DNA from: Bilabrum cf. latius
Taxonomy: Eukaryota
Length of the DNA stretch: 64,000 nt
Assembly (NCBI GenBank): GCA_965178125.1
Contig: OZ237752.1
Coordinates: forward strand, 124,001-188,000
Direction: 5' to 3'
Shown: piece by piece, positions 3,001 through 56,758 of the stretch
How positions within the stretch are numbered: the stretch's first letter is position 1
How the letters are laid out: each line of letters begins with the position of its first letter
The notes under the pieces: generated by a model
Told to the model about the DNA's origin: nothing
Seen by the model: the letters and a program-made list of their open reading frames with translations, nothing else
Databases searched by the model: none
Made by a program: the position numbers and the translations under genes

Positions 3001-6000
3001 CTGTGAGCGGGGCGGGGGGCGAGGCACCCAGTCCCGCAGTGCTGGCAGCATTCGTCGAGGCATGCGCAGACGCCGGCGATTTGGCGAGGGCGGAGGGTGC
3101 AGTGGAGGCGATGCTGCTGAGGGGGCACCAGCAGCAGGAGGGTCGCAAGCACGCCCAGCTGGGTCTCATGGGCCCCGGGGCCGGTGTGGGGATCTCCATG
3201 GGCGCGGGTGGCGCCTCCCCCGGGGGCATCTCGTCCTCCTCCTCGTCTGCCTCGTCGTTTGGCGGGGGCCCAGTGGTGGCGGCGCTGGCCCGCGAGGCGG
3301 CCATGACAGAGGCGGCCCGGGTGTTTGGTGACTCGGACGAAAGCAGCTGGGTGTCGGAGGAGCGGGCGGAGAGCGTGGTGCGTGGCGCCGCCGACGGAAC
3401 CGAGGACCCGCTGGAGGTGGAGGAGCGCCGTGCGGCACGCAAACGCGCGGTGGATGCGCGGCGCCGGTCCGCGGAACGCGTGCTCCCCGTCGTGGCCCAC
3501 GCCCCCACCCCCGCCGTGTTTGCCGCTCTGATCCGAGGGTACGGCAAGGCCGGGCGCCTGCGCGCAGCCAGGCGCGTGTTCTCGCTGCTCCGAGCCACGG
3601 CGGAGAGGGCCGCCATGGAGGCTGCTGCGGCGGCGCGGCGCCGAGGGCTCGGGGCAGCCGACGCGGAGGAGGCCTCCATGAGCGTGCGGCGTCGGAGCGT
3701 GTCGCTGGACGCCTACAACGCGATGGTTGGCGCGCTGGCAGAGGCCGCCATGCCGGAGCAGGCCAAGGCCGTGCTGCTCGAGATGGACGCGGCCGGCATG
3801 CGGCCCGACGCGCGGACGTACTCGCTGCTCATCTCCGCGTACGGACGGCGCGGCCGCACGCGGGAGGCCAGGGCGATCTTCCAGCTAGCGCAGGAAGGGG
3901 AGCTGGCAGACCACGTGGAGACGGTGAACGCGGTGCTGGGGGCGTACAGGGAGGCGGACGGGGTCTCCTCCGCGACTTCCTTCGGCTCTGGTCCCTTGGC
4001 TGCTTCGCAGGTCACGCCCGTGGCTGGCAGCAGCAGCGCCGCGTCCGGCGGCGCTGCTGCTGGTGCAGGCTCGCACAGCAGGGGCAGGAGCAGCGGTTCC
4101 TGGGGCCTTGACGAGGACGGCCTGGAGATGCCCGGGTCTGCTGCCGCTGCGGTGGGAGGCGTAGGCAGTAGCCAGATCGGTGGGCCCCGCCGGAGCTCTG
4201 CACTGGCCGAGGCAGCGTACAGGGGCATGACTCGGCGAACAGAGGGCGGCATGCCACTGCAGCCGGACGCAGGCACGTTTGCCGCCTTGCTGCGGGCCGC
4301 GGTGGACAGGGAGCCCATGGATCGCAAGAGCGCGCTCGCCGGCGTGCTGCGGCGCATGCGGGAGCGCAAGGTGGCCCCCTTGGAGGGAATGTACGCCGCA
4401 CTGCTGGGGAACAGCGGTCAGGGCGGGGACGGGGCGGAGGGGGGCTCCTCCGGGTCGTCTGGCGGCAGCGCGGGCGGCGCTGGGGCTGGGGCCGGCGGCG
4501 GTGCTGGAAGGGGCGGACGGGGACCAGCCGTCGTGCCTGACGTGGCCGACGCGCTTGCTGAGCTGGTGGAGCGCGATGCGCTCGGGGTGTGGCGGCGCAC
4601 GCGCGTGGCCGAATCTCTGTGCGGCGCGTTCGTGTCGGCGGGACGGCTTGCAGACGCGGAGGCGGTGATGGGCTCTCTGGCCCAGGAGGCGGACGCTGGG
4701 TGGGCGCGCTGGGCCGAGGGTGCGGGCAGGGCGGCAAGGGAGACCATCGCTGCAGGGGGTGTGGCGGACGGGGAACAGGGTGGGGCGGATGGGTAGGAAG
4801 GGGGCGCCCAGGGGCGCATATCTAGGATGCAGCTGCGCGCTGCCGAGCTTCGGGCCGATGCAGCGGTGTGGGCGCGCAAGGCGGCGGCGGTTGCCAGGTG
4901 CTTTGGGCGTCTGGTGGTGCAGCGGGCGCAATCGGGTGACACCGACGCGGCCGCGGGCCTGCGACGAAAGCTGCTTGAATCTGGGTCTGTGCGCCGGCTG
5001 CTGTCCCTTGTGCAGAGGGCCTTCCCCTGTCTGATCGTCGAGCACTTCCTGCTGGAAGGGTCACTCGGGGGCGGGCGGGCCAGGGACACAGAGGCGAGGG
5101 GGGCCGCCCGGGCGCTGGCCAGCCGCCTCCTGCCAGGGCCGGACGAGCTGCGCGCAGCAGAAGACGCGCTGGACTGGGTGGACGCGGCCGACATGGCTCT
5201 GGTGGTGGCCTTTGGAGCAGCACGCAGGCTGGCGGAATCATGTGCGGCCCTGCAGTGCGTGCTCCGGAGAAGGAGCAGGTACGGCCGGGCGGTCGCGGAG
5301 AGGCAGGCCCGCCGGGATGCGGGAGACCTGCCTCCCGTCTAGGCGGAGGCCGTGCGGGTGCATCGCACTGCGGAGCTGGAGCGGGCCGGGCTCGAGGAGG
5401 AGGGGGTCGAGCAGCAGCGATTCAGCCTGCGCGATGACGAATCCGCCGCCGATGGATCCAACCCGTTCCTGCAAGGCATCCAAGCCGAAGACGGGGACGA
5501 CATCGGGGGAGTCTGGGCGGCTGCGGGCGCCCCGGGTGCGCGCGGGGGTCGTTCGGGCGGCCCGATGGCACTCGGCGGGGTGTCGTCGCGCACGATAGAC
5601 CCCTTAGCCGACCTGCCGAGCACTAGCACGCTCTGGGGCTGGCGGTTTGCCCGCACCATGGTGGAGCGGCAGCGGCGGGTGGCCGAGGCGGAAGCGGAGG
5701 AGAACAGCCGGGGAGGACAAGGGCAGCGGCAGCCGAGGCCAATCAGGCTTCAGAGCCCGCTGGGCGCAGGCAGCGTGCTGGGGATGTCCAGGTCGGCAAC
5801 GTTCAGCGGCTTCACCATAGACGGGGTGTCGGCAGGCGGCATTGGAACGCGGGAACGAGGCGCTGCCTACAGCGCTGCATCCGTGGCAGTGGTAGGAGGC
5901 AGGCGGGGACCGGTGCAGTGGGCCCTGGGTTTGCTCGTGGGCTAGAGCCAGGGGCTGGTCTGGAGCGGCGGGTCACCATCGCATGCCGCGGGTCACGATG

Positions 6001-9000
6001 CGCAGTTCACCACGTCAGCATCCGCCGACCTCTCCCGGGAATGTGCCGACGACGCCGCGCCGCTCCTGGCCCTGGCCGCCGGTGTGGCTCTGGCGGGCGC
6101 GGGGCCGGATGCGGCTGCCCGCGCCCTGCTTGGGCTCGCCACGCGGGAAGGCGTCCTCCCCACCCCCGCAGTCGTGGTGCAGCTGCTGCGTGCAGCCGTG
6201 GCCGCTGGCCGCGGCGACGAGTCGCTCCGCTTGCTGCGGGCCTGTCGCACGGTGGCCGCCGGGCTGGGCGCCACGCCTGCGCAGGAGCAGGCTCTGGCAC
6301 ACTCGCCCGAGGTGGCCGCGGCGTGCCTCCGGGCTTTAGGCTCGGAGGGCAGGGCCGGCGACCTCGTGCGGTTCTGGGAGTCCCACAAGTAGCACCGCAG
6401 GGCCTCCGCCGCGAGAGCCAGGGAACAAGGGCAGGGTGCATCGCAGGGCGGCGGGGCCGGCGGCATGCGGGCGGCTGGAGCCTTTGCAGCCGAGGACGAG
6501 GACGATGGCAGGGAGGCAGCGAGCACGAGCACGGCCAGCGTGCGGCCCCCGCCCCGGTCTCCGAGAGGTGTGCCGCATCCGGCGGTCGCCCTTGCGATGC
6601 TGCAGGCACTGCCGCAGTGCATTGCACCCGCAACCACCGATGCCTCAGGCCCCTCCCCCTCCCCCTCCTCCCCCTCCCACCCCCGGCAAGGCATCCAGGC
6701 AGGAGACGCCCTGGCCCTCGCCCGCGCATGCGTGCGGGAGCAGGCCAACTGTCCCGTTGTTCCCTATGCCCCCGGGGTCCTGGAACTGTGTTCCCTGAGT
6801 GAGGCACTGCTGGCGACCGGGGCTCCGAGGTCTGCCCGAGCTCTCCTGCGCCAGCTGCTGGCCAGCGTGTGCGGGGAGGCGTTCGGGCCCACCAGGCTGC
6901 GGCAGGAGGACGAGGAGGACCAGCGGAAGGGGAGGCTGCCGGGAGAGGCCGGTGGCAGCGGCGGTGCCATAGCGGAAGAGGCGGACGCCCTGCCTGCCTG
7001 CGACAAGAAGGACGGGCTGCTGTTCGGTGCCGAGGACCCTGTGGGTGCATCGCACGCCTCTGTGGAGCAAGCCAGGCTGCTGGTGGAGCTGACCAGGGTG
7101 CTGCCGCCCGGGTCTGCGGGTGTGGTGCTAGGTGCAGGCGCGGACGCGAAGAGGCAGGGGTAGTTGCGGGCAGCGCGAGGGGAAGACGATTCGCAGCTGG
7201 GCGCCGTGGCTGCACTGGCGGCGGGTCGGGGCCTGCTGGGATCCGCTGCGGGCGCTACTCTCCGGGCGATGGCCGGTGCAGCACCTCCGCTGGACGCCCC
7301 CTCCTTTTGTTCCCTGGCTTTGGCGCTGGGGCGCGCCGGTCTCTCCCACGAGATCGGCGGGCTGGTGGAGGCGGCTGAGGGCACGGGGTCCCCGGCGCTG
7401 GGCACCGCCAACGGGACGGCTCAGGCGGTGAGCATGGGGCTGGCTGCGGCGGGGGCCGCGGAGGCGTCGGCAGCCGTGTGGAGCGACTCTCGATTCGAGG
7501 TGGACCCGGCTGTTGTTCCCCGGGCGGCGTCGAGCGACCCGCTGTGCCCCGCGCTGCGGCAGGCCCTCAGGGAGGCAATGGACGCGAGGCGGAGGAGGGG
7601 CGAGTCCACCGCTGGATTGGCAGGGCATGACGAGGGCGGGGGGGCGGGGTCGATTAGTGCAAGGGGTGGCATGGGCAGATCCAGGGGCAGGGGCAGGGGC
7701 AACTCGGTGCGTCAATCCCTCGAGTCCCTCGCGCGAGACGGGGGGGAGGAAGAGGACGAGGAGGAGGACGAGGGCAAGCTGGGCCTGGGCCGGCCCTCCT
7801 CTTCGTCCTCGTCTTCCTAGGGACTGGCCGCGGTGGCAGGGGACCTTATGACGGCCGCGGGGGCGCAGCGGTCCACCCTAGACGGTCCCAGGGGCGCCGC
7901 CTCCGTCGCCACGTCAGCGCACGTGGTGGCCCTGTGTTCCGCGGGGTTCGTGCACGCGGCAGTGTACACGGCCGAGGTGGCCTGCGCCCGCCGTCTGAGG
8001 CTGCTGTCCGACGCCGTGACGGCGCTGCTGGAGGCGTGCTGTTCCCTGGGCCGGGAAAAGATGCGGGAGGGAAGCCGGTTCGGACCCGGGGCCGCACTCG
8101 TCACACAGTCTCAGGACAGGGACGGGTCAGCCCCGGGGTCGAAACCGCCATCCCTCGCCTCCTCCCCCCCAACCTCCTCCTCCTCCGCGGGGGGGGGCTT
8201 GGCCACGTCACTTGGGGCCACTGCCAGCGGCGCCGCCCTCGCCCTCCTGACGGGTGCTGCGCTGCCTCCCATGCCAGCGGAGACGCGGGAGCTCCTGAAG
8301 CAGGCGAGGGCGAGAGGCAGCGCTGGCTCGTCCCTTCCTCACTCTCGGTCCACCAGCCGCTCCTCATCCCCCGGGAGCCTGGCCGTGTCCACGGTGGCAG
8401 GGGGTGCGGGCGCCGTGTCAGGCGGCGGTGGGGGGGTGGACCCCGGCAGCCTGACAGACGCGCTGGCGATGGATACTCTCCGCGGCACCCGACTCGCCTT
8501 GCCCGAGGGTGTTTGTCTGCTCGCGCGGCTAGAGCACGTGGGGGCCGGCCAGCGGACGCTGGGGTGGGGCCCCCGGCCGCGGGATGTGAGGGTGCTGGTG
8601 CAGCTGTACGGGATGGCAGGGGAGGTGCAGGCGGCCGAGAGCCTGGCGTTCGCGGCGCTGGACGGCTGCAGCTCCGGCGCGGCTGCGGTGCGGCCCGGTG
8701 GAGAGGCGAGGCGGAGGCTTAGGGCGAGGCACGCCGCGGCACTGGCTGCGGATGCAGCGGCCTCTGTAGCGATGCGCCCGGGCTCCGCGCCGGGGCCAGA
8801 GTCGGGTGGGTCGGGCATGCGGGAGGAGGTTCCCAGGGGCCACCTGGTGCACATGTCGGGGGGTCGGACACGTGCCCTGCGGCGGGACTCGCTGGGATTG
8901 CACGCCAGTGCCGATGAGGTGGCCTGGGTGTGGGGCACGGGCGCCGCTTCGGGTGCCGGAGTGGGGGCTGCGTCAGGATCTGGGTCGCACTTTGCGCCAG

Positions 9001-12000
9001 AGGCAGGTGCTGCCGCGGATGCCGCGTTCATGGAACGCGCGCGCGGCGAAGGTCTCGAAGAGTCCGTGGCTGTGGCGGCTGATGCCAGGGCCGAGGCAGC
9101 TGGGCTGGCGGCGGACGGCGGCATGCTCTTCGGCAAGCCGCATGCCGCGCGGATGGCGCACCGGGAGGTGCTGGGGCTAGGGGATGGCGAGGACGATGAG
9201 GCAGAGGACAGGGAACTACAACAACGAGGAGGAGAAGAGAAGCCGCTCGCCCTGACGGATGGGTCGCCCGGGTCCTCCCAAGCCTTCTATCTCCCATTGA
9301 TGGAGGCAGGAGACCTGCGAGGAGAGAAGGAGCAGTCGCAGGGGGGGGCTTTCGTGCCAGCAACCATGAGCCCCACGAGGCAACAGCAATAGCAATAGCG
9401 GCGATCAAAATTGGAATCTGGAGCACGGAGCCGTCGGGCCGCAGACTCGAGCGCCGCCTCTGCACTTCGCGCGCTGGCCAACGCCGCGCTCACCCCCGGC
9501 CACGGGGTCGCGCCCTCGTCCCAAGCAGCCGCCCGAGAGGTCGCTGCCGGCTTGCTGGGCGCGCTGGTGAGTGCCTGGGCCTGCGCCCCCAGGTCTGCGT
9601 ACTCTGCCGGTAGCGTATCCCGGCTCTCACTGGAGGTGGTGCGGGCTGCCGCGGGTGATCTCGACTTAGGCGACCTTCCCTGGGTAGAGGCCGGCTGTCG
9701 GCAGGTCGAGTGGAGGCTGCAGCGGCACGGGCTGGTTCTGGACCCGCCCTTGCCCCGGGGCGTTCAGATGGCGCGGGTGCTGGCGGCTGGCTCCTCCGAG
9801 GCTGCTGCGGACGCGGGTGGTCTCCCCGCAGGGGACATCAGGCACCTCTTGCCGGTGGCGGGTAGCACCGGCACAGGGGCGGGTTCCCTTGTACTGAGGG
9901 CGCGGGCCGCCGGGCTGCTCTTCGCGGCTGCCGAGGATCTGCGGTGCGATCAGCGGCTGCGAGGGTGCGTGATGGCACTGGCCAGCAAAGAAGCCGCCAC
10001 CGCTGCCTAGAAACGGACCACGGAGACGCAGCAGCAGCAAGGCGGTGCCGGCAAGCCTCGGTCAGCGTTCGCGTCCAAGTTCAGCCCTTCCTCTCCCGAG
10101 AGGCGCGTGGCATTCACCGAGGACCGGTCAGGGAACAACGCGCCGGGGAACAACGAGGGCGCCCAGGATGCCGCGCGCAGGGCTAGGGCCGCGGCGGGCC
10201 ACGCCCGCGCCCCCTTGCCCGGCTCGCTCCCTGCCGCTAGCCTCGTGTCCGTCCTGGCCTCCGTGGGCATCGGCACGACGCTGGCGCCGCCCAGGTGCAG
10301 CGAAGCGCCCAGGCGGAGGGCAGCAGCCCAGGCCTACCTGGCCTCGTTGCCCAAGCGGGACCCAGGTCCGCCTTCCGAGCTCTCAGGGGGTACTGGGGGA
10401 GGAGGTGTGGGGGCTGGTGGGTCGTACACGGATGCCGATGAGGTGCTGGGTCTGGCCGCGGGGATGCCAGGCGTGCCTGCGCTGCGGCACGTCGGTGGTG
10501 GTGGTGGCGACAGCAGGGGCGGTGCGGGTGGAGTGGGTGTGAATGTGCCGCGCGGGGGAGGACGCGATGGTCCTGCGTGGACTGCGCTTCTTGGCGACGA
10601 CGGGCAGGGTGAGCTGCCTGCCGGCCTCTTCTTCGGGGAACAGCGACCAGGAGGAGGGGAGGAGGAGGAGAAAGAGGAGGGGCGGCGGGCGGATCGGATC
10701 AGGCGCGCCGCGGGAGGGGCCGGCGGGGGGGAGGGAGGGGACGCGGAGCGGCAGCTCGCCGCGAGTAGTATTGGCTCCGGGTCTGTGGGCGGGCGCCCCG
10801 ACGTGGAGGGGAGGGCGAGGAGCCTCCGGGCGAAGCTGCTCGAGGCCGGGTCCGTTGTGACCGAGCCTGACGTCAGGGCTGTGGAGGCCGAGGTTATGGC
10901 GCTGGCGCTAGAGGGAGACGACCTGCGGAAGCTGCGGAACGAGGCGGAAGCGGAACTGCGGCGGGTCGCGCAGGCCCTTGAAGAGGAGGAAGAGGATCTC
11001 CGGGACGAGGACGGCATGGCCGGGGGCACCACAGCGGCGGCATCGCTCGAGGCGGCAGCGGCCATGGTGGGGTCGTCCACTCGTCACACCGTGGATGACG
11101 GGGTAGGGAGTGGTAGAGGTTCCCCGGACCGCCACTCGTCACACCCCGCAGCCGACGGAGTGCTCCTGCTCGCCCGCAGGACGAGGGCGCTTCGGGCGGC
11201 TCTGACCGACTTGGAGACCCAGGGCACGGCGGCCCGGGAGGCCTGGACCGAGGGGCAGACGGCGGGGTTCCATCCCGCGGACAGGCCCGCCAACCGGCTC
11301 GTGCCGTCGGGCGCCGGAGAAGGTGGACTCGGAGCCGAGGAAGACGATGTTGTGGTGCCCGTGTCAGCGGCGGTGGGGTCCTTCGAGCGGTGGGCGGAGC
11401 ACTCGCAGGCGATCGAGGAGGAGGAGCAGGCCGCCAGGGAACAACTGGCGGACGTGTCTCGCCGCATCGCTGCACTGGAGCTGGCCCAGGACGAGGCCCT
11501 CAGGAGGTTCCGCATAATGCAGCGGCGCGGCGCCCACGAGGCGCGGGAGGCCTCCAGGCGGGCCCGGGGGCTAGACTCGACTCCCGGGGAGGACCAGGGG
11601 CAGGGGCGTGCCGGCCAGGAGGGGTAGTCCGGCTCAGGAAACAAGGCCCCGGAGGTGGCCGGGCTGCTGTCCACGGCGGCCGCTGCCGCAGCCCCACCCC
11701 AGGATGCGATGCGTGCCCCCGGGGGCCGGGGGGGCAGTGACCCCACCGGGGGGACGCAGGGAGACGGGCGGGAGGAAGAGAACCCCCCCCATGGCCGGGG
11801 TCCCGCGGGCGTGGATGAGGCGCTGCTGCCGCGAGCCCTCGTGGCGGCTTTGGGCTCCGAGTCGTCGCTCCCCGCCGTGGTGCTGTCGCCGTTCTCTGCC
11901 GCAGTGGTGCGCGCACAGACCGCCCGGGCCGTGGCGGCGGAGCGCTCAAGACTGCTGGCCTCTCGGCTGGCGGCGCAGCGCCGGTTCGAGGCGGCCCTGG

Positions 12001-14537
12001 CGGCGCAGGCCCAGCTGGCCGAGCGGGCCCGGTCCGTGGTGAGGGGCTGGTCCCGGGCCTCGACTCTGCTGGAGGAGGAGCTGCAGCACACCACGCGGGA
12101 GCTGGCGCTGCAGGGGAGGGAGGAAGCCAAGGCGCAGGCAGAGCTGGCGCGGCTCAGGGAACAAGCGGCCCAGGCGAAGCGCGCATCGGACGCTGCGCTG
12201 GTGGTGGCGCGGGCCTACAGGGACAGGGCGGGGGGGAGGCTGAGGCAGGCACGTGTCGAGTCCGATGCGCTGGGGCGGCACTCGGCCGGCAAGGCCGTGG
12301 CGGACGCGACCCACGCGGCGGCCACGGTCGGCCAGGAGCTTCTCTCTGCCGCGAGGCAGGAGGCCGTCTCGGAGCTGCAGAGGGCCAGGGACGAGGTCCA
12401 AGCCAAGATCACGGCGGTGCCCGGTCAGATGCGCAAGGCGCTGGAGGAGGACCTGGCTCCTGCACTGGAGCAGGAGAGGAGAGAGGCAGAGGCAGTGGCA
12501 GCCAAGAAAGCAGAGCTAGTGCGCGAGCTCCGGAAGAAGAGAGAGGAGTTGGCTGAGGCCTCGAGAGAGGCGGCGGCGGCGGCTGCGGGACTCGACGTGG
12601 AGCTGCACACGTCCCAGCTGGCGGCCGTGGCGGGCACCGAAGGTTCGCTGCAGCTTCGCCCGGTGACTCCGGGTCGCGCGCCTGCTCCGGCTGGTGGAGG
12701 CTTCAGCTCCCCCCCGCAGGCCGGCAGCGGCAGGGGCCCGCTGGAGACCCTCCCAGCATCGGAGCCGTCGTCCGACTCCCCCGGGCGCTCCCTGCAACGG
12801 CTCCTGCAGCAGTCCGTGCCTCCGGGCGTGACCGACCTCCGGGAGCCCCTGGCCCAGCTCGCCGGTGCCCTCTTCGGGGATGCGGGTGAGGTGGCAGAGG
12901 TGCTGGAGGCCGTGGAGCGGTGGAGCGACGGGGACGCCCAGGACGCCATGGAGGCCGCGGCGGAAGGGGCGGCCAGGCAGGCCAGGCAGGCGCTGCTGGA
13001 GGAGGACGGGGCGAATGCCGCTGCGGCGGCAGCGGCGACGGTCGGGTCGCACTCGTCACACAAGCCCTCGAAGGCGGCCCTGCTGCTGCGCGTGTGGGAC
13101 GAGGGGGTGCTTCCTGTGGAGAGGGCGACGTACGAGGCTGAGCTGGCGCGGGCGCTGGAGCAGCAGGGGGCGGCTGGCACGCCGGCGGAGCTGGCGGCTC
13201 TCCGGAGAACAGTGGCGGGGGTGGCCAACGGCTTGAGCGTTAGAGAGGCCGTGGACCTGGCCGTGGGCATGGGCAACAGGAGGGGGCGGGGCGGGCGCCG
13301 GGGGAGCGCACAGTCAGGATTTGGGTCTGGGTCAGCCATCGCCAGCCATCGTCGCGGCTCCAAAGTAACCGAGGGGGCCCAGTCCGCCTTCCTTGGCGGG
13401 CTGGGGCTGTCCATGGCCGGCGAGTCGGCTTCGGAGAGGAGCAGCCCGGACTCGGCATCTGCGGCAGGAGGCTTGGATGCCGGCGGCACTCAGGTGCAAG
13501 TGCAGGGACAGGGGCAGGGGCAGTCCGCTTCTGTGGCGGAGCAGGAGGCGCGGCAAGCGGCCCTGCTAGCCGCAGGGGTGCAGGACCCGGAGTCGGTGAT
13601 GCAGGCCAAGGAACAACGATCCGCGGCAGACGGCCGTCCAGGGAACAAGCGGGTGACGGATCCCAGCGGGTCCGGCGTGGACCTCACCGTGCTGCCCCCG
13701 CTCGTGCACTGGCGCTTGCTGGAGCGCGTGCGGGGGGGCATGGAGCGAGCGGCCGCCCTCGGCCTCGGGATCGGTGTGGGCGGGATTCGGCGGAGGGGCA
13801 TCGGGCAGGGGCAGGGAGGGAGCAGTGTCTCCTCGGCTGCCTCGGTGTCCAGCTCTGCTTCCGCCACCGAGGCGCCTCAGTCCCGGGGTACAGGCAGTGG
13901 CCAGGCCAGGAGGGGAGGTAGTGCGCTGCGGCGCGGCAGCTCGCACGTGGCGATGCTCAAGGCCCTGCAGGAGTCCGGCGCCGGGGGGGGCATGGGCGAT
14001 GTGACCCCGCCAGGGGGACTGGCGAACGTTCCTCCAGGTTCCTTCTCCTTCGCCAGCACTAGGCCCGGCGAGCCCCGGCGCAGCCCGGTGGATCGCTCGG
14101 GGTCTCCTTTCCCTGGGCACTCGTCACAGGGCCGCAGGCTGCTGCCCGAGGAGAAGCAGGTGCTCAGGCAAGGGGCGCTGCAGCGGCTGGCGGGAGGTGC
14201 TGTGACGAGTGCGCAGGGCCGCGGGCCCGGCTGGGCAGACGCGCGCGTGGGTACCACGTCCGTCTCGAGGCGCCGGGGCGGGCCAGGTGTGACGAGTGCG
14301 GCGTCGCCGGGCGCGCTGTCGTCCAGCCCATCCTCGGTGCGGTTCGCTTTGGAGGCTGGGCGGGAGGGACGGGCGGTGGCGCAGGAATACCAGCCGAAGA
14401 ACGATGCGACATCGAGGGAAGTAAGCGCGCCCGCCGGCGACGGTCGGCGCGCAGAGAAGAGTAGTGGTCGGGACGCGGGCGAGCAGGAGGAGCAGCTCCG
14501 TGCTCGCCTGTTTGCGAGGAGGCGGCGCGCTCGCTGA
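3..14537 (+). CDS. Giant pentatricopeptide-repeat (PPR) protein, 5'-partial, at least 4844 aa when TAG is read as sense
   Basis: ORF-track pieces starting at 15, 729, 1653, 4827, 5352, 6084, 6465, 7164, 7833, 9411, 10107 and 11655 are all in one frame. They are separated only by 12 TAGs (669, 1635, 4794, 5340, 5943, 6390, 7161, 7818, 9390, 9396, 10008, 11625) and end at TGA 14535-14537. PPR-like motifs lie at about 2590-3950, e.g. PTVEACNAMLKVYATRGQAESA, PTPAVFAALIRGYGKAGRLRAARRVF and DAYNAMVGALAEAAMPEQAKAVLLEMDAAGMRPDARTYSLLISAYGRRG. Coiled-coil-like segments lie near the C-terminus. Confidence 0.8.
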
Positions 14538-15510: not shown

Positions 15511-18010
15511 ATGTCATCAATCGGAAAGCGAGTTGTTGTGCTCAAGGTGGGAACGTCCAGCATTTTAACCCCGGACTATTCGTCGATTCGGCTGTCAATG
15601 ATAGCCACCATCGCGGAAGTATGCGCTCGGCTGAAGGTGTTCGGCTTCGAGCCGATCGTCGTGAGCTCTGGAGCGGTGGGCGTCGGTTGCGTGCGATTGC
15701 ATCGAAAGAGCCGCCCGCAGGAGATTTCGACCGTCCAGGCGCTCGCCTCGGTCGGTTAGGGCTACTTGATGCGCATGTGGGACGATGCTTTGTCCGCGGT
15801 GAACCTGCGGGCCGGCCTAATCCTGCTCACGTACGATTCGTTTGGCGAGCGCGCCCATTACAACGCGGCGAGCGCATGCTTCCAGGAGATGCTGAAGATC
15901 GGAGCAGTGCCCATCGTGAACAATAACGATGCCACCGGCGTCACACAGATTGAGGACAACGACACGCTCGCGGCCATGGTGGCAGCAATGGTGAGGCTTT
16001 GATCTGGCCGTCCGCGGTACAAGATTCGCAAGGCGCCGTGCCCCGCGCATTGCGCAATGTATTGTGCATTGGTGTGTTCGTGTGCTAAAGCGCTTGCTTT
16101 CGTCCATTCCCACGCCCCGCCCCTGCTACCACCCCGCGCCCACTCGCACCTCCTCTCTTCACCCGATTTGTTCCACCCATCCTCCCCCCCCCCCACCACC
16201 CATGCAGACGCAAGCGGAGCACTGCTTCATCCTCACAGACGTGAATGGCCTCTACACGGCCAACCCCAGGACGGACGCCCAGGCCCGCCTCGTGCGGTCG
16301 GTGCAGCCCCGGATCCTCCCCCAGCTCAAGAAGGCCCTCCAGCACGAGGGAACAGACCTGGGCATGCTGCTGGCGGAGGCCTCCCAGCAGGGGGCGGCCA
16401 AGCTCGCGGGCCCGCCCCCGGCAGCAGTGGCTGCCGCAGCGGCCGCCGCAGCCGAGGCGGCAGCGGCGGCCGTGGCCGTGGCCGCCGAAGCCGTCGCCGA
16501 GTCCCAGGCCATGGCCGCGGAAGAGGCCCAGATGGCTGCCTCGGGAATGGGCAAGTACCACCACGGGGCCATGGTGACCGCGGGCATGAGGGCTCTGGGC
16601 GAGAGAGTGCTGGGCGGGGGGCAGCAGAACGGTGGCCAGTGGGGCCAGCACAGCGGGGGCATGGGGAGCCAAGGGGGCCCGCAGCAGCACTCGAGCGGGT
16701 CGCTGCTGGCCATCGGGCCCCCGCCCCCGGGCTCAGCCGCCGGTGCCTCGGACGACGACGACGCCGCGAGCTCAGTGGCCCGCAGCAGGGACGACCCGGA
16801 ATCGGATCGGGAGTCCGACATGGGCTCCGGGAACGGCGGGGACTCGGGCGCGGGCTACAACCAGGGAGGCAACCGCTCCGTGGCGGGTCTGGCGCACCAC
16901 GTTGCCATCTCCTCCCGGGCCTCTGTGGGCTCCCGCTGGTCCAACGACGGGAACGGGAGCCTTTCCGGACACGTGCCCGCGGGCAGCGCCTCGGCCTTGG
17001 GCTCAGGCACGGGCGAGCGGAAGGCCTCCGGCGACTCGGCCGCGCCAGCGGGCATGGCCGTGGCGGCCGTGACCCCCCCGGGCCCCCAGCCCAGCACGGG
17101 CGCGGGCAGCGAGGCCAAGTCTGGCGACGGTGACGGTGACGACGACGAAGACAAGCAGAGGAGCGGGACCTGGGGTACAGGCGGGATGGCCACGAAGCTG
17201 ATCGCCGCCCAGATCGCCACTGCCTGCGGGGCGACCTACCACATCATCGCGTCCGATCGTGTGACGAGGGTACCCGAGGCTGTGGCCCATAGGAAGCGCG
17301 TGGGCACGATGTTCCTTCCATGCGCCCGGCCCATCAAGGGCCAGAAGCGCTGGATCCTGAGCCTGCAGGCACAGGGCAGGCTGGTGATGGACATGGGGGC
17401 AGCCGGTGCCGTGATCCACAACCGCAAGAGCCTCTTCGCGGCTGGGATCGCCTCTGTGGAGGGCGACTTCAGCGCGCACGAGGCCGTGCTGCTGGTGGAC
17501 CCACGAGGGCACGAGCTGGCGCAGGCCATGGTGAACTACTCCCGGGACGAGGTGGACAAGATCCGTGGGGCGGACTCGAAGGACATCCCCGGGCTGCTGG
17601 GCTACGAGGGCACCGACACCGTGTGCCACCGGGACAACATCGTGGTGCTGGGGGAGAGGGCCTCGGTGGCGGAGGACAAGGACGAGGGGGGGGCCAGCGT
17701 GCCCCCACTGGGGGGGACCGCGGCCCCGCGGCTGCCGAGCTACCCCACCCACGGGGAGGACAAGGTGGGGGAGGCCTAGGACGTGAGAGGGGATGCCCTG
17801 CGTGCGGCCGACGCCGCCATGCGAGCGGGCGGGATCGGCACCAAGGGAAAGTCGGGGTCTGCCAGCACATCGGAGCTGCAGGCTCTGGCGGGCGCGGGCG
17901 GTGGGCAGCAGCGCCGCGTCTCGGGCGAGCACGGGGACTCGAGTCGCTCGCTCACCCCGCTGGCCCAGCAGATCGAAGCCAATCTCGCGGAGCAACGAAA
18001 ACAGGAATGA
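15511..18010 (+). CDS. proB: Glutamate 5-kinase with C-terminal PUA domain (ProB/Pro1 family); exons 15511-15990 and 16208-18010
   Basis: Motifs VVLKVGTSS, IVVSSGAVGVG, QALASVG*GYLM, PIVNNND, DNDTLAA, ILTDVNGLYTANP, GTGGMATK, and PUA-like GRLVMDMGA..SLFAAGIASVEGDF..VCHRDN. GT-AG intron 15991-16207 (phase 0). In-frame TAGs at 15757 and 17777; TGA stop. Confidence 0.92.
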
Positions 18011-18230
18011 GGCGCCGGCAGCGCGGTCTCGGTTGGCTGTCGGCAATGGGTATTTATAAACGGTGAATGAGTTTCCTAGCTGCGAACCGGTGTGCCTGTG
18101 GCACGTGCTGTCCACATCATGGACCATGCGGCACCGCGGTGTGCGAGGAGCACCTGCTTATATACAGCTTCCGGTTTCGGAGCAAACACAAACAAAAGTG
18201 TATTTTCTAATCAAGGTGGCCGCCAACGCC

Positions 18231-20393
18231 ATGCAAGGTAACTCAGGCGCTTTGTTAATGCTACAAACTCGTTCTCGAGGTCTATAGATAGGCGTGGGAG
18301 CAGCAGTGAAGCTGCTGCGAGAGTGCAAAGCGAGCAAGGTGGCGGCACACATGGAGGCGTTGCGCAGCGCTGCATTCTCCGTAGACCACTGCGAGCGGCT
18401 GAGCGATCTTTTAAAAATAAAACCTTCATTGGATGCCTTCTAGGCTACTATGTCTGTCATTGTAGCGCGATGCCAATTGGTGGAGCTCGAGCTGCAACTG
18501 AGCAGATCGACAATTAAGTGCCGAGAAGGCGCCGAACAGCTCGGACGATTGCTCTCAATGGTATCCACTAAAATATTTGCCTTGGTTGTGTCTGGCTAGT
18601 GCGCCGTGGATATCGACGTGGTGTTGGCGGCGACGAGCAAAGTGGCCTCGTGCATTGTGCGTTCAATTTCGCGGCTGTCAGGCCCTCCGGCGGAGAGCGA
18701 CGACACCACTATGTTTCCATCACTCGATTTAAGCGATTGTATCGAGAAAATCCGCGATACCTTGCTGGAGGAGCTGGTCTGGATGCTTCGCGCAGGCTTC
18801 GCACAAGTGCTGCACGGCGGGGACGAAGCAAGCGTGGAGCGCGGAGCGGCCGCCTGCCTAGGCGCACTGCGTTTGATACTGACTGATTGTCGCGACGCTC
18901 TGGGAGAAGTGGATGTGGTCCACTTTCTGTACGAGGATCTGGAGCTGCCTGCCACCGACAAGCGAGCTGCGGGTGGCAGCTCCTCAGCTGGCTCACCGGA
19001 GTTCGACGTAGCCACTTCTGGCGATACCAAGGAGCCTATGAGGCCCAACATTGATCATGGTGCCCAATCTGCCAAAGTAGTCGTCCAGGCTGCCCTCACG
19101 ATGGTGCAGGCGGGCGCCCCGACGGCCTCGGCTGCAGGGCTCCTCAACTGTGTGCTAGAGGCTGACAGGCCCATGCGACCGGCGCGGGCTGAAAGCAGCG
19201 AGAGCGGCGACCCAAACAGAGTGGCCATGCGAGTCCGCAGGATGAGCATGGCGGCGCAAGGGAAGCTGGCCTTTGTCGCTATCCGGATCGTGCAGCTGGC
19301 TGCGTGCGCCGCCCCCCGTCTCCTGGGGAAGCGCATGCTAGGAGTGGCAGTCTCGCAGGCAGCCATGTCCACGTCAAGGAGCATGCAGTACACGCTTCTG
19401 TGCTGGCAGGCGGCCTGTGCGATCGCCTGCGGGGCGGGGCCACCGTCACTGACCGACCTCGGCAGTCTGGTACGGAGCGCGGTCGCCGGGCCGATCTGCG
19501 ACGCCGTGTCGATCGAGGTGGGCAGTGAGCCGGCGTCGGGGGACGCCACGACTGTGCTCCTACTGCAAGCCAAGTAGCGGTCACCAATCGACGTCCTAGC
19601 TGCAGCGATGCACCTGCGGGCGTGCGTGGTGCCTGTCATGGTGGCTGCGGTCGGTGCCCGGATGGCTCCGGAGAAGTCCTCTCCTCCCGGGCAGACCGCA
19701 GGCTCTACCGGTGCACCATCGTCATCGTCATCCTCGTCATCCTCGTCGTCCTCGTCATCCTCGTCGTCCTCGTCATCCTTGTCGTCCTCGTCATCCTCAT
19801 CTTCATCGGCATCGTCTGCGGCAGCAACATCGGCTGCCTCCTTCGAAGATGCCAGGCGGCAGGTGCTGGCCCTGTGCCTCGATGCCGTCGGGGCGGCGTG
19901 CGGGAGCCTGCAAGCGAAAATCAAGGACAAGTGCGCCAGCGGCACGCAGGCATACGGGGATGCCATGGTCGCTGCCGATCGGAGCGCAGCTGGACTGGGT
20001 GAGGACGCAAGGAGTAGGGTGCGGGAGGCCGCGGCCAGGACGCTGCTGCAGGGCCCAACCCTCCGTGCGCTCGCCTTACTGCGGTCCTGTCAGCAGGAGC
20101 TGTCTGCGATTCTCCGCGCCGGGCAGGAGGCGGGCTCGGCGGGGTGGGCACGCGCAGAGGCAATCGAGGAAGCGCTCAAGGGGTATGTGGCCGAGCGGGT
20201 CTTGTGCCTAGCAGCATGCAGCTCTGTCGCAGGCAAGGGCCAGATCCGTGCGGCCCTTCGGGTGCCCGCGGTGGCCATGGGGCCCGCTGCCTTCGAGGAG
20301 GCCTGGGCCGCGGCCGGGGGTGAGACTGGGATGGGCGCTATCGGGGCGTGGCAGGATGTGCTGGACTGGTCCGGTGCAGGGCAGGTTACGTGA
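18231..20393 (+). CDS. Hypothetical alpha-helical protein, continuous if TAG is sense; start uncertain
   Basis: One frame from ATG 18231 to TGA 20391-20393, interrupted only by TAG at 18285, 18441, 18597 and 19575. Contains a poly-Ser tract; no recognisable domain. Confidence 0.55.
19718..19810 (+). repeat. TCN trinucleotide low-complexity repeat encoding poly-Ser
   Basis: tcg/tca/tcc iterations, directly visible. Confidence 0.8.
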
Positions 20394-20478
20394 CCAGCCG
20401 AGTGAACGTGCTCGTAGCAGCGGTAATATTTGCTTCTAGAGATAAATCAATCAACAGAAGGATGCTTCGCCGCCCCTT

Positions 20479-23400
20479 TTAATCATCCTTGATGCGCCTC
20501 TCCCCGGCCCTGCCTCCACCGCTCGTCCTGCAGCACATCACCATGGACAGCAGGCACGTGGTCGCCACCCAAGCCCCGTTGCACACTGCTGATCCCGCCT
20601 GAACAGGCCATCGCACCGCCGCCATCACTGCGTTGGCGCTGGACTCGATTCCCCCCGAGAGCAGCAGGCAGGGCGCCATGATGCACACCCTAAGGGCGAG
20701 AGACACGAGGCGGGTTGGCCCCAGGCTGCGCGCTGCAAGCCCGCCCCCGCTGCCACTCCTCACAGCGACCGCCTGCGACGCCCGACCGTGGCTACCGGAC
20801 CCAGCGATCAGCCCGCTCTCGTGCCCTGTCGCTGCCGTGCTTCCCGACAGCACGGTGTCGCAGTCCCAGTCGTGGACCCCGTCGTCCAGGCCTCTTGTTC
20901 CCTCCACCTGGGGCTCTCCACCCTCTGCCACCTGAGGCAGACCTCCCTTCCCATCGTGTCCCCCCTCAGCACCACTGGGCTCTCCTCCGCCCAGGCTAGA
21001 ACTGCTCCCGGCCCGAAACACGCTGAAAGCCCCAGAACCTGCCCTCAGCCCGAAATCCCGCAGGTCACTCAGTGAGCCCGCCCCATCGTCATCGTCACTA
21101 TCTTCATCTTCATCCATGCCCGCGCCGCCTTCTTGGTTCTCTCCGTCGCGCCCACGAGCATGGGCATCGGTGGGTTCAGCAGCGCTCCGTGGGGCGGGGG
21201 CGCGCGCTGGCTCAATAGGTGCTCCTCCATGGTCGTGCTCATGGTCGCTGGGGACGCTGCCGGAGGTGCTTCCTATGCTCCCGTGACTCGCTGCCGTTGA
21301 ATCGATGCCCGGAGCAACGTCCGCATTGTGCATGCTGTGCACGCTGGAACGCCGTTGATTCATCCCCCCGCCCTCCACCGTGCCACCTCTCATGCCATCC
21401 GCGCGCCATCGCGCCGCCCTGCTGTCGGCCTCCTGCCTGGAAATGCTCTCCTGCAGCTCCCCCACCACTCCTCGCAGGCTATCTGCGGCTCTCTGCGCGA
21501 TGTCTCTGCTCCTCTGGGCCGCCCTCCTGGCCCTGCGCTCCGCCTCCAGCTCCTTCTCAACTGCTTCCAGCCGCTGCAGGGCCACGTCACGCTCGGCGGT
21601 GGCGCGCTGCCTGCGGTCGACGGAGGAATGGTGCCGGCTGAGGGTGCTCCTAGCAGAACCCCGGCGATGCATCCCGTGAGTTCCTGTGCTATTGACTATC
21701 GCACTGCCACTGCCACCAAGTTCACGCGCATTCCCGGCGCCATGGAAATGGCCCATGCCACCGAAACTGCGGGCTTGCTCGCTGGGCATTGGCTGTGCCG
21801 TGCTGGACCTCGCCACTGGCAATCCCTTCTGCTCCTGGACGTGGGACCACCTGCTGCCCACAACGCTGCCATTGCCTGGATTGCTCGTGCTTGCAGCTGC
21901 CGGCAGTGCGCCAGTCCCGATGGACCCACCGCTGGGCACGCGGGACTATCCATCGGACGTGGGAGATGTCGTCGACAATGCTTGATCCCTGCTGCTGGAG
22001 AACAATGATCGCGCCAGACCGAATATGCCTGTGCCAAGGGCAGCACCCGCACCCTCACGGCTCGCGGTCCCACTGCCCTCCTGCGCTGCCCCTCTTGCCT
22101 TTGGTGCATCAGGTGCTGGAGTGGGCGGTACCCACCCACCTCCGTCCGATGGAGACAGGGCAAACGCAGCATCCTGCACCTACTGACCATCCGTCGCTGC
22201 ATCTTCGGGGCTTGCCCGAGACCCTGACCCAGCCGGGCGTAGCAGAGCAGCAGATGAGCCCCCCTGCCTGTTGTTACCGCTGCTACTGCCGCCAATGCTC
22301 TCCTTGCTGCGGAACCGACGGCGCCGCGCGACAGCTCCATCCACCGGAGAACTACCCCGCTCCTGGTCCTGGTCCTGGTCCTGGTCGGGTGTGTGCAGCA
22401 GCACACCGCCGTCCATCGTCACGCCAGCGCCCAAGCTGCCGTCGATCGCAACTCTCTGACCAATGGACACCCCAGGTGAGCTGCTGCCTTCATCTCCTTG
22501 CTCCTCTTCCTCTTTGTTTACCACCTCCTGGCCGTCCCCATCGTGCCCTGGTTCCCACCCGCCTGCGTGCAACCCCTGTGCATGCAGCTCAGCCCGTGAC
22601 ACGTACCCGCCATCAGCAGGTCTGCCATCCCGGGCACCACTCTTAGCCGTTGAACCCGCAACCGTCCCTGTCGCCGTTGAACCCGCAACCGTCCCTGTCG
22701 CCCCATCTCCCCCTCCCCCTCCCCCTCCCCCCGGCAGCAGCGGCACGTTGAACACGTCAAGGTCAGACACCGCAGCGGCCTGGCTCCAATCGCTCGCGTT
22801 GCTGCCGCGGCGCTCCATGGGCCGCCGCCACCGGGACATGGACATGCTGCTATCGCTGCCGCGCCGGTTTCCGATAGACGGGTGCACTGTGTGGTGGTGG
22901 GAGAGCATGCGGTGGCCAATGGCACTGCTGGCTCTAGCATTCGGTCGAGATAGGCGAGACGTACTACCCAATGCAGCGCCGTCCACAGACGCACGGGCCA
23001 CAGCTCCCGAGAGCCGGGGGCTATCGGCTCTGGTCCGTAATGCAGCTTCTGTGGCGACACGCTCCAGCCGAGTGCGGCGCTCGGTCGCCGCTTTCTCTTC
23101 CTTTGCAGCAGCAGCTGCGTCGTCGAGGTGCGCACCGAGCATGCCTTCCTGCATCGTGCCAACTCGTTTCAGTAGGACCGCGCGCTGGCGCTCCGCTGCG
23201 GCGGCTCTTTCCTTAGCCTGCTCTGCTTCTTTCCGAGCGGCCTCTGCTTGCGATTTCGCTTCTTGTAGCTCTACTTCCAGAGCCTCTTGGCGCCGCAGCA
23301 GCCGGAGCCCGATGGCGGCAGCCTTGGCCGCGGCGTCATCCTCATCCGTAGTGTCTCCATCCTCCGTACCGCCGTCTGTACCCTCGAAAGAGCCATCATC

Positions 23401-23990
23401 ATCGCTTTCCTGCCCGATAACAGCCGCACCTTGTGAGCTTGATGCTGTCGACCTGCTGGCTAGCGGCGAGCCATGCGTAGCATGCACAATGGGCGCTCGC
23501 TACTAGTTCATTCGACGGGTCTCGGATTTCGGGCTAGCATAGCTTGCGCTTCTGGAACGTTGTACTGAGCCTCCATCGCTGCTGCGTGTGGTGGGCTCGT
23601 TGTGGCGAGTTGGCGCCACTGGCGGTCGGCGGCTGCCGTCGTCTCCGGGCATTTCTTCATCCAACCGACGTCCTCGCCCCCGTCGACGCGGGCGGTGCTG
23701 AGATGAAGAAGACTCTCCTGCCGTCTGAACCTACGAGGGATCATTGTCCCGTAATTTGGATCGTTTTCGGTCCTGTTTCCACTGGTGTGATTCTGCCGAT
23801 TGCAAAAAGTCGATCAATTCCTGCGTGGTACGATCGGGCCAGGAACGAGGAATATACTTCATGCCTAATATATGTACCGTAGCAGTGGGTATGCTCTGAA
23901 ACAGGATACGACTCGAGCATAACACGTATCGGCTCATTTCGTTCTCACGCCCATTCCGGGCGACTCTGCTGCCAAATCTTCATCCGACAT
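20479..23990 (-). CDS. Hypothetical coiled-coil protein with hydrophobic C-terminal segments; 5' exon tentative
   Basis: One minus frame from about 23895 to TAA at 20479-20481, interrupted only by TAG at 23731, 23503, 23500, 22180 and 21946. Two heptad-rich segments (RRQEALEVELQEAK.., LQRLEAVEKELEAERR..). Tentative first exon 23949-23990 with GT-AG intron 23896-23948. Confidence 0.6.
22646..22699. repeat. Perfect 27-nt tandem duplication within a CDS
   Basis: gccgttgaacccgcaaccgtccctgtc occurs twice; it encodes a repeated TGTVAGSTA peptide on the minus strand. Confidence 0.85.
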
Positions 23991-24190
23991 TCTCAGGTGA
24001 CTCTCAGACATAATATTGTAGGGTATACGTGCGTTGCTGTACCCAATCGCCGTCCCAGTGGCTTTCAAGCTGTTGCGCACAGTAGAATGAGTGCGGGCCA
24101 TCAAGAGCCATCCGGTTCGCCGACGCCTCGTGGTCGCAAGTCGGCGAGCTAAAACTCCAGCCGGATCCTCCCCTTCTGTCTCTCAGCCAC

Positions 24191-27100
24191 TCAGCATCTC
24201 TCAAAAATCTTGTAGAGCTGCTCGGTGCACGCCACTTGCACCGTCCTGTGGTCCTCGGCGAGGCCGCGGGGAGGCAGCAGAAGACGCCGGGCAGCGGGCC
24301 ACATCACGTGCTCGGCGATGAAGAATGCCGATTCCGGGTCCGACCTGTGTTCCTCGGCCCGCCCCACCTCCATCCCAGGCGCCTCTCTGCCCTCGGTTGA
24401 CCCCCCATCCCCATCCCCACCAGCAGCCGCACCGGCTCTGTCGTCCAGGAGCCCCCTCGGCACCGGCCGGGCCCAGTCGGGTATGTCAGGCAGCCTCGCG
24501 TAGAACCGGCCAATGGCCTCCGAGACGGTCCGGAAGCAGGGCCCCTCCTCCTCCCACTCGGCCTGCAGCGCAAGGTCCAGCAAGAACGAGGGCAGCCAGT
24601 CCATGCACGGAGTGTGCCCATCCACGAGCCTGGGCAAAGAGGTGAGGCAGGGGCGCGGCTGGGCGGGGGATGAGCCGGCAGACGAAGACGAAGAAGAAGA
24701 GGAAGAAGAGGAAGAAGAGGAGGAGGAGGAGGACGATGACCCGCCTTCGCCCTTGCTCCCAGCCTCAACTGCCTGCACAGAGATCCCGATCCCGAAGTAC
24801 TGGCCCAGCATCTCGCCCTTGCTGGCCAGCAGCACCGCAGCTTCCTGCACCAGCTGCTCCCTGGCCTGCGGGTCGGCGATCTCGGCCGCCACTGCCCCTC
24901 CCGCCGCGTCCTCCTCCTCAAGGGCCAACTGCAGGAGCTCCGTGATGGAGGGGGCTGGCTCCAGCTGGAAGGAGTGCATGTTGGCGAAGAGGCCGAGTGC
25001 CCTCTGGTAGAAGAGCTGCTGGCTGCGGGAGAAGAGAAGCGGGGTGGAAGGGGGAGAGAGAGAAGGGTCATTGCATTGCAGGGCATCGGATAGGGACGAA
25101 TGCGTGTGCCTCGAACATGCGAGGAAAGAACCAAGCGCCCGCGCGCAATCCATACCGAGCTCGTGCTCGAGTCGGCTCTCACAAGTATTCGTAGTGGTTG
25201 ACCAGAACCAGCCTGGTCTTGTGCTGCACCAGTGACAGCTGCTCGTCCACGACCCCCACGAAGGTGTGTTCCCTGACGATTGCCTGCAGGGCGGGGTGCA
25301 CGGCTGCCTTGGCTTCGTCCAGGAGTCCCAGCACGCTGGGCAGCTTCACTTCGCGCCTCTGGTTTCTCTGCCTCTCTGCGCGTCTCTGGGACAGCATCGC
25401 GCGGTAGCTTAGTCGCTTGGCCTGCGAGGCTGGCACGCCGCCATCGTTGGGATCAGTGGCATCGGTGCCACCGGTGCCTCCGGCTGCTTCCCCCTGCGAC
25501 CCGTTGGCTGCAGCGGCATCCACCACGGGATCCATTGCTCCCTGTTCTCTCCCCCTCTTGTGTCCGAGTCCCGCGCCAGCACTAGCATGCGATGCACCTA
25601 CCTAGGCACCCAGCGCAGTCCCAGCCACAGCACTCGCTTGGGCATCCACCGCCAGCTGCATCCCCACTGCCCCGGCCCTCTCCGCAAGAGGACCCTCACC
25701 CTCCACCCCGTCCTCGCAGCAATCGTCCATCGACGCCTGGCCATTCCTAGCAGCAGCGGCGCCCTCCAGTGCAGCCAGCTGGCGGACATCGTCCGGATCG
25801 TAACCCAGCTACCTGTCCGTGCCAGCTGCTGCACCCGTGTCGGCACCAGAGGCCAAGTCCAGCTGTGCAGCCCCCATCCCCTCACCCGGATCCATCGCAC
25901 CGTCCTCCCCCATCCCACTCGTCACACCGCCCTACCGCGCCGACACCATGAACGAGTCGAGTCTCTGCAGCTTGGTGTCCGTGCGGACCAGCTTGTCGGG
26001 CCGCTTGGCCGGAGCCGTGCGAGACGAGGCCCCGCCCTGCACGGGCACGCCGCTTGTTCCCTGGGACGCCCCCTGCTTCCGCTTGGCGGCAGCCTCCTGC
26101 GTAAACACGTACGGCAGGGGGCGGCGCGGCCTGGTTTTGCGCGACTAGGATGATGATGACGAGGAGGAGGCGGCTGCCCGCCCTCTGCTTCCGCCTTGTC
26201 TCGCCCTGCCTCCACCCTCGTCCTCGTCCTCCTCCTCATCATCATCACCATCGCTTTCACTCCCGTCCTCCATTGAAGCCTGACTCCCTTTCCTGCCCCT
26301 CCTGCTCTTGCTGGACCCACCGTCACCTGCACCGTCACCGCCATCAACACCGCCACCGCCCGTCCCCTCACCCGCTCCCGCCACCACGGCGTGTCCATCC
26401 CCGTCCAGCCCCACCTACAGGAAATCCACTCCCGCCAGGGAACTCCTCTGCGTCTGCGCATTGCGATGGGACGATTTGCGACCGGCCTGGCCGGCCCCTG
26501 TGGACCCCGCCTTCAGCGAGGAACCAGCCACCGCCGCCGTGCCTCCGGGCAGCAGAGCCTGGGAGTAGAAGGTGCGGCTGCGGTTGGCCCCCTGCAGCGC
26601 CGCCTCTATCGCCTCCGTGGCGGCTGCAGCCACCTCGTCTTCGTGAAGGAGGGCGACGTGCCTCTTGGCGGGGTGCACATTGACGTCCACGTGGGAAGGA
26701 GGCAGCTCCACCTCGAGGTACACGAAGGGGTGGGAACCCTTGGGGAGGCAGTGCTGGAAGGGCTGCGTGCAGGCACGCTTGAGTGTCGGGCTCTCGACCA
26801 GACGATGGTTGACGAAGAGCACAAATATGCCCCGCTTCATGCTGTAGCTGGCCCCCGTGCACATCCCCTTGAGTCTGAAGCAGGGGCGGGCACCCATCAG
26901 GCCGTTGTCGCTACCGCCGCCGCCTCCGTCACCGCCGCTGCCACTGCTGCCGGACTCGGCTGCATCCCCCGCGCGAGGGAGAGTGCTCGCGCTGGTCGCT
27001 TCCGGGGCGCTGCTTGAAGCAGGCAGCTGGGGCAGCTACAGCCCCTGTGCCGGGTGGGTGGCGCTGGATGCTTCGTCGGTGCCTGCGGCTGCGCTTGCCC

Positions 27101-28039: not shown

Positions 28040-28233
28040 ATCGAATAAATCGAACGCAAGTGTTTGCTCAGCGAATTGGTTCCGCTAATAGCCAAACCGG
28101 AACTACCGATTCACGCGGCGCCAAGGATCCATCATGGATACGGGTGGATTTATCCCACTTGTTCTTGCCGTTGATAGGACATTCAAAACTCCTGACGTCC
28201 TTACGTTGTACTTTATACCTACAACTACCTCTT

Positions 28234-31957: not shown

Positions 31958-32216
31958 CTTTTGGTAGTTCCAGAGAATGCATCATTCTCGCATGCTTCGG
32001 GAACTCTGTCAAACCGGAACAAAACGAGAAAGGCAACTCGATGGACGTGCTCTTCGCCAGTGAGACAACTTGCAGCAGCGTGATACATAATGCAAATCTA
32101 GAAACCTTCGCGCCCTCCGCTGGCCCGCTAGTCCCGCCCGCCAGCCTCCCACCTCCCACCTGCCACCAACTTGAAGCTCACCCACAGCCTCCGACACCCT
32201 CGCCCCCTCAGGATCC

Positions 32217-51764: not shown

Positions 51765-51926
51765 CAAAGTTGATCTGTGGTCTAGTTGGGCAACCGAATC
51801 CGCTCGCACCCGTTGGTGGTTTGGGCCGCAGCGGTGACGAGTGGGTGCACTCAACACGATCCAAAAATGCGATAGCTGGGTGCCACGCACTGCACACATT
51901 AGAATTCGAGCCTCTTCCCCCAGTCC

Positions 51927-53805
<1,879 letters not shown>

Positions 53806-56727: not shown

Positions 56728-56758
<31 letters not shown>

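Follow-up and report, generated by a model that had tools for sequence, protein, structure and literature searches.

A nuclear genetic code that reads UAG as glutamine while UAA and UGA both remain stop codons is reported for the fornicate Iotanema spirale, where UAA is the predominant terminator and the GTS motif of the release factor eRF1 carries a T32G replacement (PMC5304391). The same reading of UAG, again with UAA as a stop, is given for the phyllopharyngean ciliates Hartmannula sinica and Trochilia petrani and for Protocruzia tuzeti; in these organisms 86.9-98.3% of genes end in UAA, which is argued to fix that codon as a stop (PMC11687900). The DNA considered here is a stretch of 64,000 nucleotides (nt) from Bilabrum cf. 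latius (contig OZ237752.1 of assembly GCA_965178125.1, positions 124,001 to 188,000, forward strand), hereafter the window. Its genes carry TAG in frame and, as modelled, end in TGA, save for a single minus-strand gene for a coiled-coil protein that ends in TAA at 20479..20481. We consider it likely that the organism uses a code of the table 15 type, in which TAG is glutamine, TGA is the usual terminator, and TAA is still a terminator, rarely used.

Set beside Iotanema, this organism assigns all three codons alike, and in both cases a tRNA-Gln with anticodon CUA and an eRF1 weakened at UAG would account for the pattern. The two differ in that Iotanema relies mainly on UAA stops whereas TGA ends 17 of 18 genes here, and in that Iotanema is an anaerobic metamonad whereas the present organism bears a PPR protein and is placed among stramenopiles by an MLH1 tree of limited scope. 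With Hartmannula, Trochilia and Protocruzia, the shared feature is that UAG alone has passed to glutamine and is widely used as sense, whereas UAA here ends only about one gene in 20, and both the lineage and the guanine-plus-cytosine (GC) content (53-74% across the window) are different. Because so few genes would end in UAA, the barrier to its own reassignment would be low.

Two further groups of codes are close enough to require comparison. UAR is glutamine (table 6) in many ciliates, ulvophycean green algae, hexamitid diplomonads, Streblomastix and Amoeboaphelidium, according to two reports (PMC11687900, PMC5304391); those organisms share with this one UAG as glutamine and TGA as by far the main terminator, but read UAA as glutamine, whereas here the exons contain no TAA and one gene is TAA-terminated. 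Other changes confined to UAG are listed in the same reports for the rhizarian exLh and TARA phyllopharyngeans (leucine) and for Scotinosphaera (serine) (PMC5304391, PMC11687900). There, too, UAG is decoupled from UAA and UAA is still a stop; the difference is that glutamine is favoured here, one of eight TAG/sense pairs being with leucine and none with serine. The preliminary description of this DNA had called the split between UAA and UAG mechanistically unusual, and unusual it is, but not unprecedented, the same combination having been published for the four protists named above. To our knowledge, no nuclear code change separating UAG from UAA was known before 2017, and such changes can still be counted on two hands.

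Reading of TAG and TAA in the exons

TAG is a sense codon in this DNA. The 18 gene open reading frames (ORFs) of the window, taken untrimmed from TGA to TGA (18,097 codons), hold 69 TAG and nine TAA in frame; trimmed to exons, the set retains 55 TAG in 15,885 codons and not one TAA, which bears out the earlier statement that resolved exons lack internal TAA. One trimmed segment, TBCC_last, is mis-bounded and includes an in-frame TGA; the TAA count is unaffected. The identity of the amino acid is addressed by one codon in glutamate-5-kinase:

15757..15759, plus strand: within glutamate-5-kinase exon 15483-15989, a TAG where the ..AAVGQ.. motif has its invariant Gln (structure-sequence alignments)

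In all four alignments shown to solved glutamate-5-kinases (four of the eight structures matched), this TAG aligns with Q. A second comparison is offered by L001, a metagenome contig from the Joint Genome Institute (JGI) of 7039 base pairs and 60% GC that carries the same SCC3-AAA-TBCC-GH20 neighbourhood, with a GH20 69% identical to that of the window; of nine loci returned by a metagenome scan with GH20 it alone was close and used, L002-L009 (37-41% identity) being left out. Over 1514 aligned codon pairs, TAG occupies nine columns, in one of which it stands in both sequences; in the other eight it is paired with Gln five times (CAG three, CAA two) and with Leu, Thr and Asp once each. These pairs, dominated by first-position C/T changes between CAR and TAG, imply that L001 shares the code. 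On the strength of such alignments, TAG most likely specifies glutamine.

Between L001 (1-7039) and window positions 47423-54177 the order SCC3, AAA ATPase, TBCC is kept, GH20 is inverted, and intergenic spacers are short. In the first exon of the AAA ATPase, which is MIT-like, three TAG codons fall within 18 codons (53721-53772, minus strand); at these positions L001 has one TAG, one CAA and one CTG.

The nine in-frame TAA of the untrimmed set are located as follows:

18057: upstream of a start, in the 3' untranslated region of the kinase, before the next ORF
38203: upstream of a start, 27 codons ahead of the first Met of the transposase
45211: upstream of a start, two codons ahead of a signal-peptide Met
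51486: upstream of a start, the first codon of its ORF
53571..53573, minus strand: in an intron, flanked by exon 1 (MIT-like, 53805-53635, with three TAG) and exon 2 of the gene for the katanin-like AAA ATPase
50223: in an intron, between two TBCC exons conserved in L001
20481 and 20388, minus strand: the terminus of the coiled-coil gene and the next TAA beyond it
46006: in ORF g14, within its 5' part, which is low in GC and unsupported

Both AAA ATPase exons flanking TAA 53573 are conserved in L001, and the stretch between them is not. Across the codon pairs with L001 there is no TAA, save one immediately upstream of a start codon. Read off frame, the untrimmed ORFs are not poor in TAA: they hold 35 in the +1 frame and 37 in the +2 frame. 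For the 11 untrimmed ORFs without TAA (12,998 codons, 40 TAG), in which CAA:CAG is 80:441 (a CAA share of 0.154), the chance of finding 40 TAG and no TAA, if TAA were used like CAA, is P = 1.3e-3. In the trimmed exons, CAA:CAG = 88:501 leads one to expect about 9.7 TAA (P = 1.4e-4). A per-segment probability of 1.7e-7 was rejected as the product of pseudocount inflation in a 57-codon exon, and the pooled values are used instead. TAA does not behave as a sense codon here, and these counts make table 6 unlikely.

The terminal codons agree with the tally first made, of 17 TGA and one TAA: among the 18 modelled genes TGA ends 17, TAA one and TAG none, and in L001 the corresponding numbers are four, none and none out of four, so that a TAA terminus is found in one of the 22 genes of the window and L001 combined. 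Genes terminating at TAG, looked for as counter-evidence, were found neither among the 18 nor among the four. For MLH1 and the AAA ATPase the terminus is backed by Pfam profiles extending to the final residues (Pfam results throughout refer to 19 gene ORFs of the window), and SCC3, AAA ATPase, TBCC and GH20 have the same ending in L001. Transcript-like contigs, described below, cover the stop of glutamate-5-kinase, the coiled-coil gene, the glyoxalase gene, the phosphoesterase and the beta-helix gene; the remaining eight modelled termini are placed by ORF evidence alone.

The coiled-coil gene and its TAA

The features of this locus are the following:

20482..24011, minus strand: coiled-coil coding region, ATG at 24011, 1134 codons when spliced; in frame five TAG, no TAA and no TGA
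20479..20481, minus strand: TAA terminator of the coiled-coil gene (..RRIKDD-TAA), the sole TAA terminus among the 18 modelled genes
about 23820-23947, minus strand: GT..AG intron of the coiled-coil gene (joint 23819>23948 in X5 and X6; the cut possibly one base further)
20394..20478, no strand: spacer between the convergent stop codons, 85 nt, 49% GC
18201..20393, plus strand: convergent ORF, TGA at 20391-20393, four in-frame TAG
20176..20478, minus strand: hypothetical read-through of the TAA, an extension of 101 codons that would meet a second TAA at 20386-20388 and then TGA at 20176-20178
20415..20478, minus strand: stretch after the TAA covered by X5 record 10, 64 nt, colinear, no in-frame TGA

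The preliminary description had placed ..IKDD-TAA 85 nt from the TGA of the convergent gene, next to an AT-richer spacer, and the arrangement is indeed of this kind, GC standing at 49% inside the spacer against 70% and 69% in the 500-nt flanks around it. If the TAA were read through, the extension would lie antisense to the final 218 nt of the ORF next to it.

Contig sets from three public runs of two studies (X5, X6 and X7) were compared with the locus. They lack five GT..AG introns that are kept in X1, a DNA-like run, and therefore represent spliced transcripts. Together the contigs cover 20415-22686, 22742-23819 and 23948-24071 of the coiled-coil locus. Record 10 of X5 (2277 nt) is colinear with 20415-22686 across the TAA, with no other letters and no gaps; the transcript thus contains the TAA, which is neither edited nor spliced out. 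Likewise, the glutamate-5-kinase exon 15483-15989, TAG included, is covered by X5, X6 and X7 with no other letters. Neither TAG nor TAA is removed by editing. That one listed X5 contig ends at 20415 hints at best weakly at a 3' end of the mRNA there; near the five contig ends compared, no shared motif resembling a poly(A) signal was found. In the convergent ORF, the bin 18503-19169 is without X5-X7 cover, and the uncovered part carries no information.

The coiled-coil protein has a sole homologue among 5.8 billion proteins, P0123 (398 residues, from an assembled public run), which is 82% identical over 400 aligned columns and ends in the same final residue (..RIKDD). Conservation between the two is highest across the hydrophobic C-terminal 100 residues. 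P0123 speaks to a conserved position of the end, not to the meaning of TAA. Pfam assigns no family to the coiled-coil gene and none to the convergent ORF, for which Pfam was the only homologue search.

We take the TAA to be the probable terminator of the coiled-coil gene because of the drop in GC, the colinearity of the X5 contig, the antisense course of any read-through, and the end shared with the homologue. For the TAA at 20479 to be sense would require a coincidence: it would be the only such codon in about 17,000, and it would fall at a drop in GC, at the end of the homologue, and 85 nt from the stop of the neighbouring gene. We regard this as improbable.

The last ~100 residues of the coiled-coil protein (20482-20780, minus strand), its best-conserved part relative to P0123, are Cys-rich as well as hydrophobic. 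The terminal RIKDD may loosely resemble C-terminal di-basic retrieval signals.

A mechanism may be proposed in which a tRNA-Gln with anticodon CUA would read UAG and not UAA, owing to the C:A mismatch at the wobble position, while eRF1 would have lost recognition of UAG, or be outcompeted there, and would have kept UAA and UGA. A tRNA with anticodon UUA would be absent. High GC would drive terminators toward TGA, and the coiled-coil gene (24011..20479, minus strand) would be one of the few genes still ending in UAA. For Iotanema it is argued that reassignment of UAG alone needs both a CUA-anticodon tRNA, which differs from tRNA-Gln(CUG) by a single mutation and is unable to pair with UAA, and an eRF1 that has ceased to compete at UAG (PMC5304391). 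The mechanism suggested here is a reasonable one by analogy, and the same as that proposed for Iotanema. Searches of the window with ARAGORN and with Rfam at gathering thresholds returned no tRNA or other RNA gene, a search of L001 returned none either, and the 64-kb window holds no eRF1 gene.

Alternative readings and consequences

The proposal that UAG is sense while UAA is a stop beside UGA is supported by codon counts, homology, a related contig and a transcript-like contig, with one TAA terminus as its only direct instance. A number of points weigh against it. There is only that single TAA terminus, among 18 window genes and with none in the four of L001, and three of the eight TAG/sense pairs with L001 are not with Gln. 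With GC so high, only about 7 to 10 sense TAA are expected, so that TAA as glutamine is rejected at a level of about 1e-3 to 1e-4; the tests presuppose that TAA:TAG mirrors CAA:CAG, and the numbers are small. The trimmed exons were delimited with the TAA positions known, and the untrimmed test is limited to the 11 TAA-free ORFs. Were P0123 to end at a TAA, a standard gene caller would have treated that codon as a stop regardless of the actual code. No record gives the library type of X5-X7 (the automated guess is "RNA?", and for X5 "probably DNA"), and contig ends are not the same as mRNA ends.

One alternative, itself very unlikely, is that TAA is in effect unassigned or avoided, neither decoded nor deliberately used, the TAA at 20479 being an exception that terminates poorly or by default in a lineage close to a TGA-only state. 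The use of TAA as terminator in only one of 22 genes, together with its absence from exons, would fit such a state. An eRF1 that reads UGA, and that reads the first two bases UA, normally reads UAA as well, which counts against it. So does the end held in common with an 82%-identical homologue, which follows 100 highly conserved residues and points to an old, functional terminus.

A code of the table 6 type, in which TAA and TAG are both glutamine, TGA is the sole stop, TAA is rare from GC pressure, and the codon at 20479 is read as glutamine, we judge to be very unlikely. TGA does end 17 of 18 window genes and four of four in L001, as such a code would have it, and with CAA at only about 15% of Gln codons few sense TAA are to be expected. 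Even so, no TAA accompanies the 40 to 55 in-frame TAG (with the two P values given above), and the lone candidate for a sense TAA lies at a drop in GC, at the homologue's end, and before 101 codons antisense to the neighbour. That the X5 contig ends 64 nt past the TAA, ahead of any in-frame TGA, is a further, weak hint in the same direction.

There is only a slim chance that the code is position-dependent, with TAG and perhaps TAA read as sense internally and as terminators near the 3' end of the mRNA in the manner of Condylostoma or Blastocrithidia: such codes exist, as two reports describe (PMC4967479, PMC12153298), and one TAG of glutamate-5-kinase does lie about 85 codons past the end of PUA in an unconserved tail, but TAG is required as terminator in none of the 18 window genes and none of the four in L001 (a small sample), TGA follows the homology-anchored C-termini of MLH1, AAA ATPase, GH20, SCC3 and TBCC, and TAG codons are spread along whole ORFs.

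Returning to the table 15 reading, the decoupling of UAG from UAA is in itself already known; what looks new is the setting, a GC-rich (55-73% GC), probably stramenopile genome with TGA as main terminator. In the literature outside subscription journals and supplements, we found no report of UAG as glutamine in a stramenopile or in a GC-rich eukaryote, nor did we find any nuclear code change in stramenopiles in print. We suggest only tentatively, as somewhat short of an even prospect, that UAG became glutamine independently in this lineage, GC-rich and probably stramenopile, where UAA has nearly been dropped as a terminator (one of 22 genes).

If this is so, the lineage would stand poised between code 15 and code 6. 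It would also run counter to codon capture, since at such a GC content one expects UAG, before its reassignment, to have been a common stop and not a rare one (an expectation, not a measurement). With TGA as the main stop and UAA nearly idle, the lock on UAA as a stop codon would be weak, unlike in the published lineages with UAG as glutamine. Every further example of a UAG/UAA split bears on whether mechanism or only history couples the two codons. For annotation, standard gene callers would cut most long proteins at TAG, and table 6 would over-extend the few that end in TAA; table 15 would be the code with which to annotate this organism.

Lineage and gene content

By sequence comparison, the organism is probably a stramenopile, perhaps near the bicosoecids. 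Cafeteria roenbergensis is among the best named matches, at 46% identity for GH20 and 56% for MLH1. Named matches of MLH1 are headed by Cafeteria, Tribonema and Heterosigma and continue with fungi and further stramenopiles such as Ectocarpus. In a quick tree of MLH1 built from 33 hand-picked rows of the 120 listed, comprising stramenopiles, opisthokonts and unnamed rows only, the query falls on the stramenopile side with a Shimodaira-Hasegawa-like approximate likelihood ratio test (SH-aLRT) support of 99, and beside Cafeteria with an SH-aLRT of 87; the branch leading to the query is long (1.58), and the amino-acid composition of Cafeteria deviates from that of the alignment. An origin from a green alga or an aphelid was considered and set aside, the named matches and the MLH1 tree pointing elsewhere.

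The window is GC-rich eukaryotic nuclear DNA. Its two giant ORFs encode a PPR protein (4845 codons) and a cohesin SCC3/STAG subunit. The Pfam scan further identifies a glutamate-5-kinase with PUA domain, MLH1, a glyoxalase-fold protein, a metallophosphoesterase, a beta-helix protein, an EF-hand protein, a pogo-like DDE transposase, a GH20 hexosaminidase, a TBCC-domain protein and the katanin-like AAA ATPase. The features of this remainder that bear coordinates of their own are:

3..14537, plus strand: PPR-protein ORF, 12 in-frame TAG, no TAA, TGA terminus
53980..61608, minus strand: cohesin SCC3/STAG ORF, 2543 codons, four in-frame TAG, no TAA, TGA terminus
24191..24193, minus strand: TGA terminus of MLH1 after the conserved ..FERC, the Mlh1_C profile being matched through position 264/264 at the last residue

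The PPR ORF has no introns and is open at the start of the window; only its PPR block (residues ~1237-1315) is assigned to a family, and outside that block it is low-complexity and rich in Ala, Gly and Ser. In glutamate-5-kinase (16208-18007, plus strand) a low-complexity insert of ~300 residues separates the kinase and PUA domains, and a tail of ~140 residues after PUA holds one TAG. The ORF of the pogo-like DDE_1 transposase (38284-40629, plus strand) runs for 782 codons from its first Met, with nine TAG and no TAA in frame, and ends in TGA; the transposase appears to be adapted to the code of its host, unless its TAGs are marks of decay.

Coding runs for poly-Ser and for Asp/Glu, at 19700-19800, 22690-22740 and 24674-24745, interrupt the X1 DNA contigs; the same runs draw in contigs of other transcripts, which are seen as many loose ends. 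For window positions 14501-34500, runs that bear the organism labels B and C contain spliced contigs that are nearly identical, the DNA run bearing label A; the organism may cohabit with others or be filed under other names.

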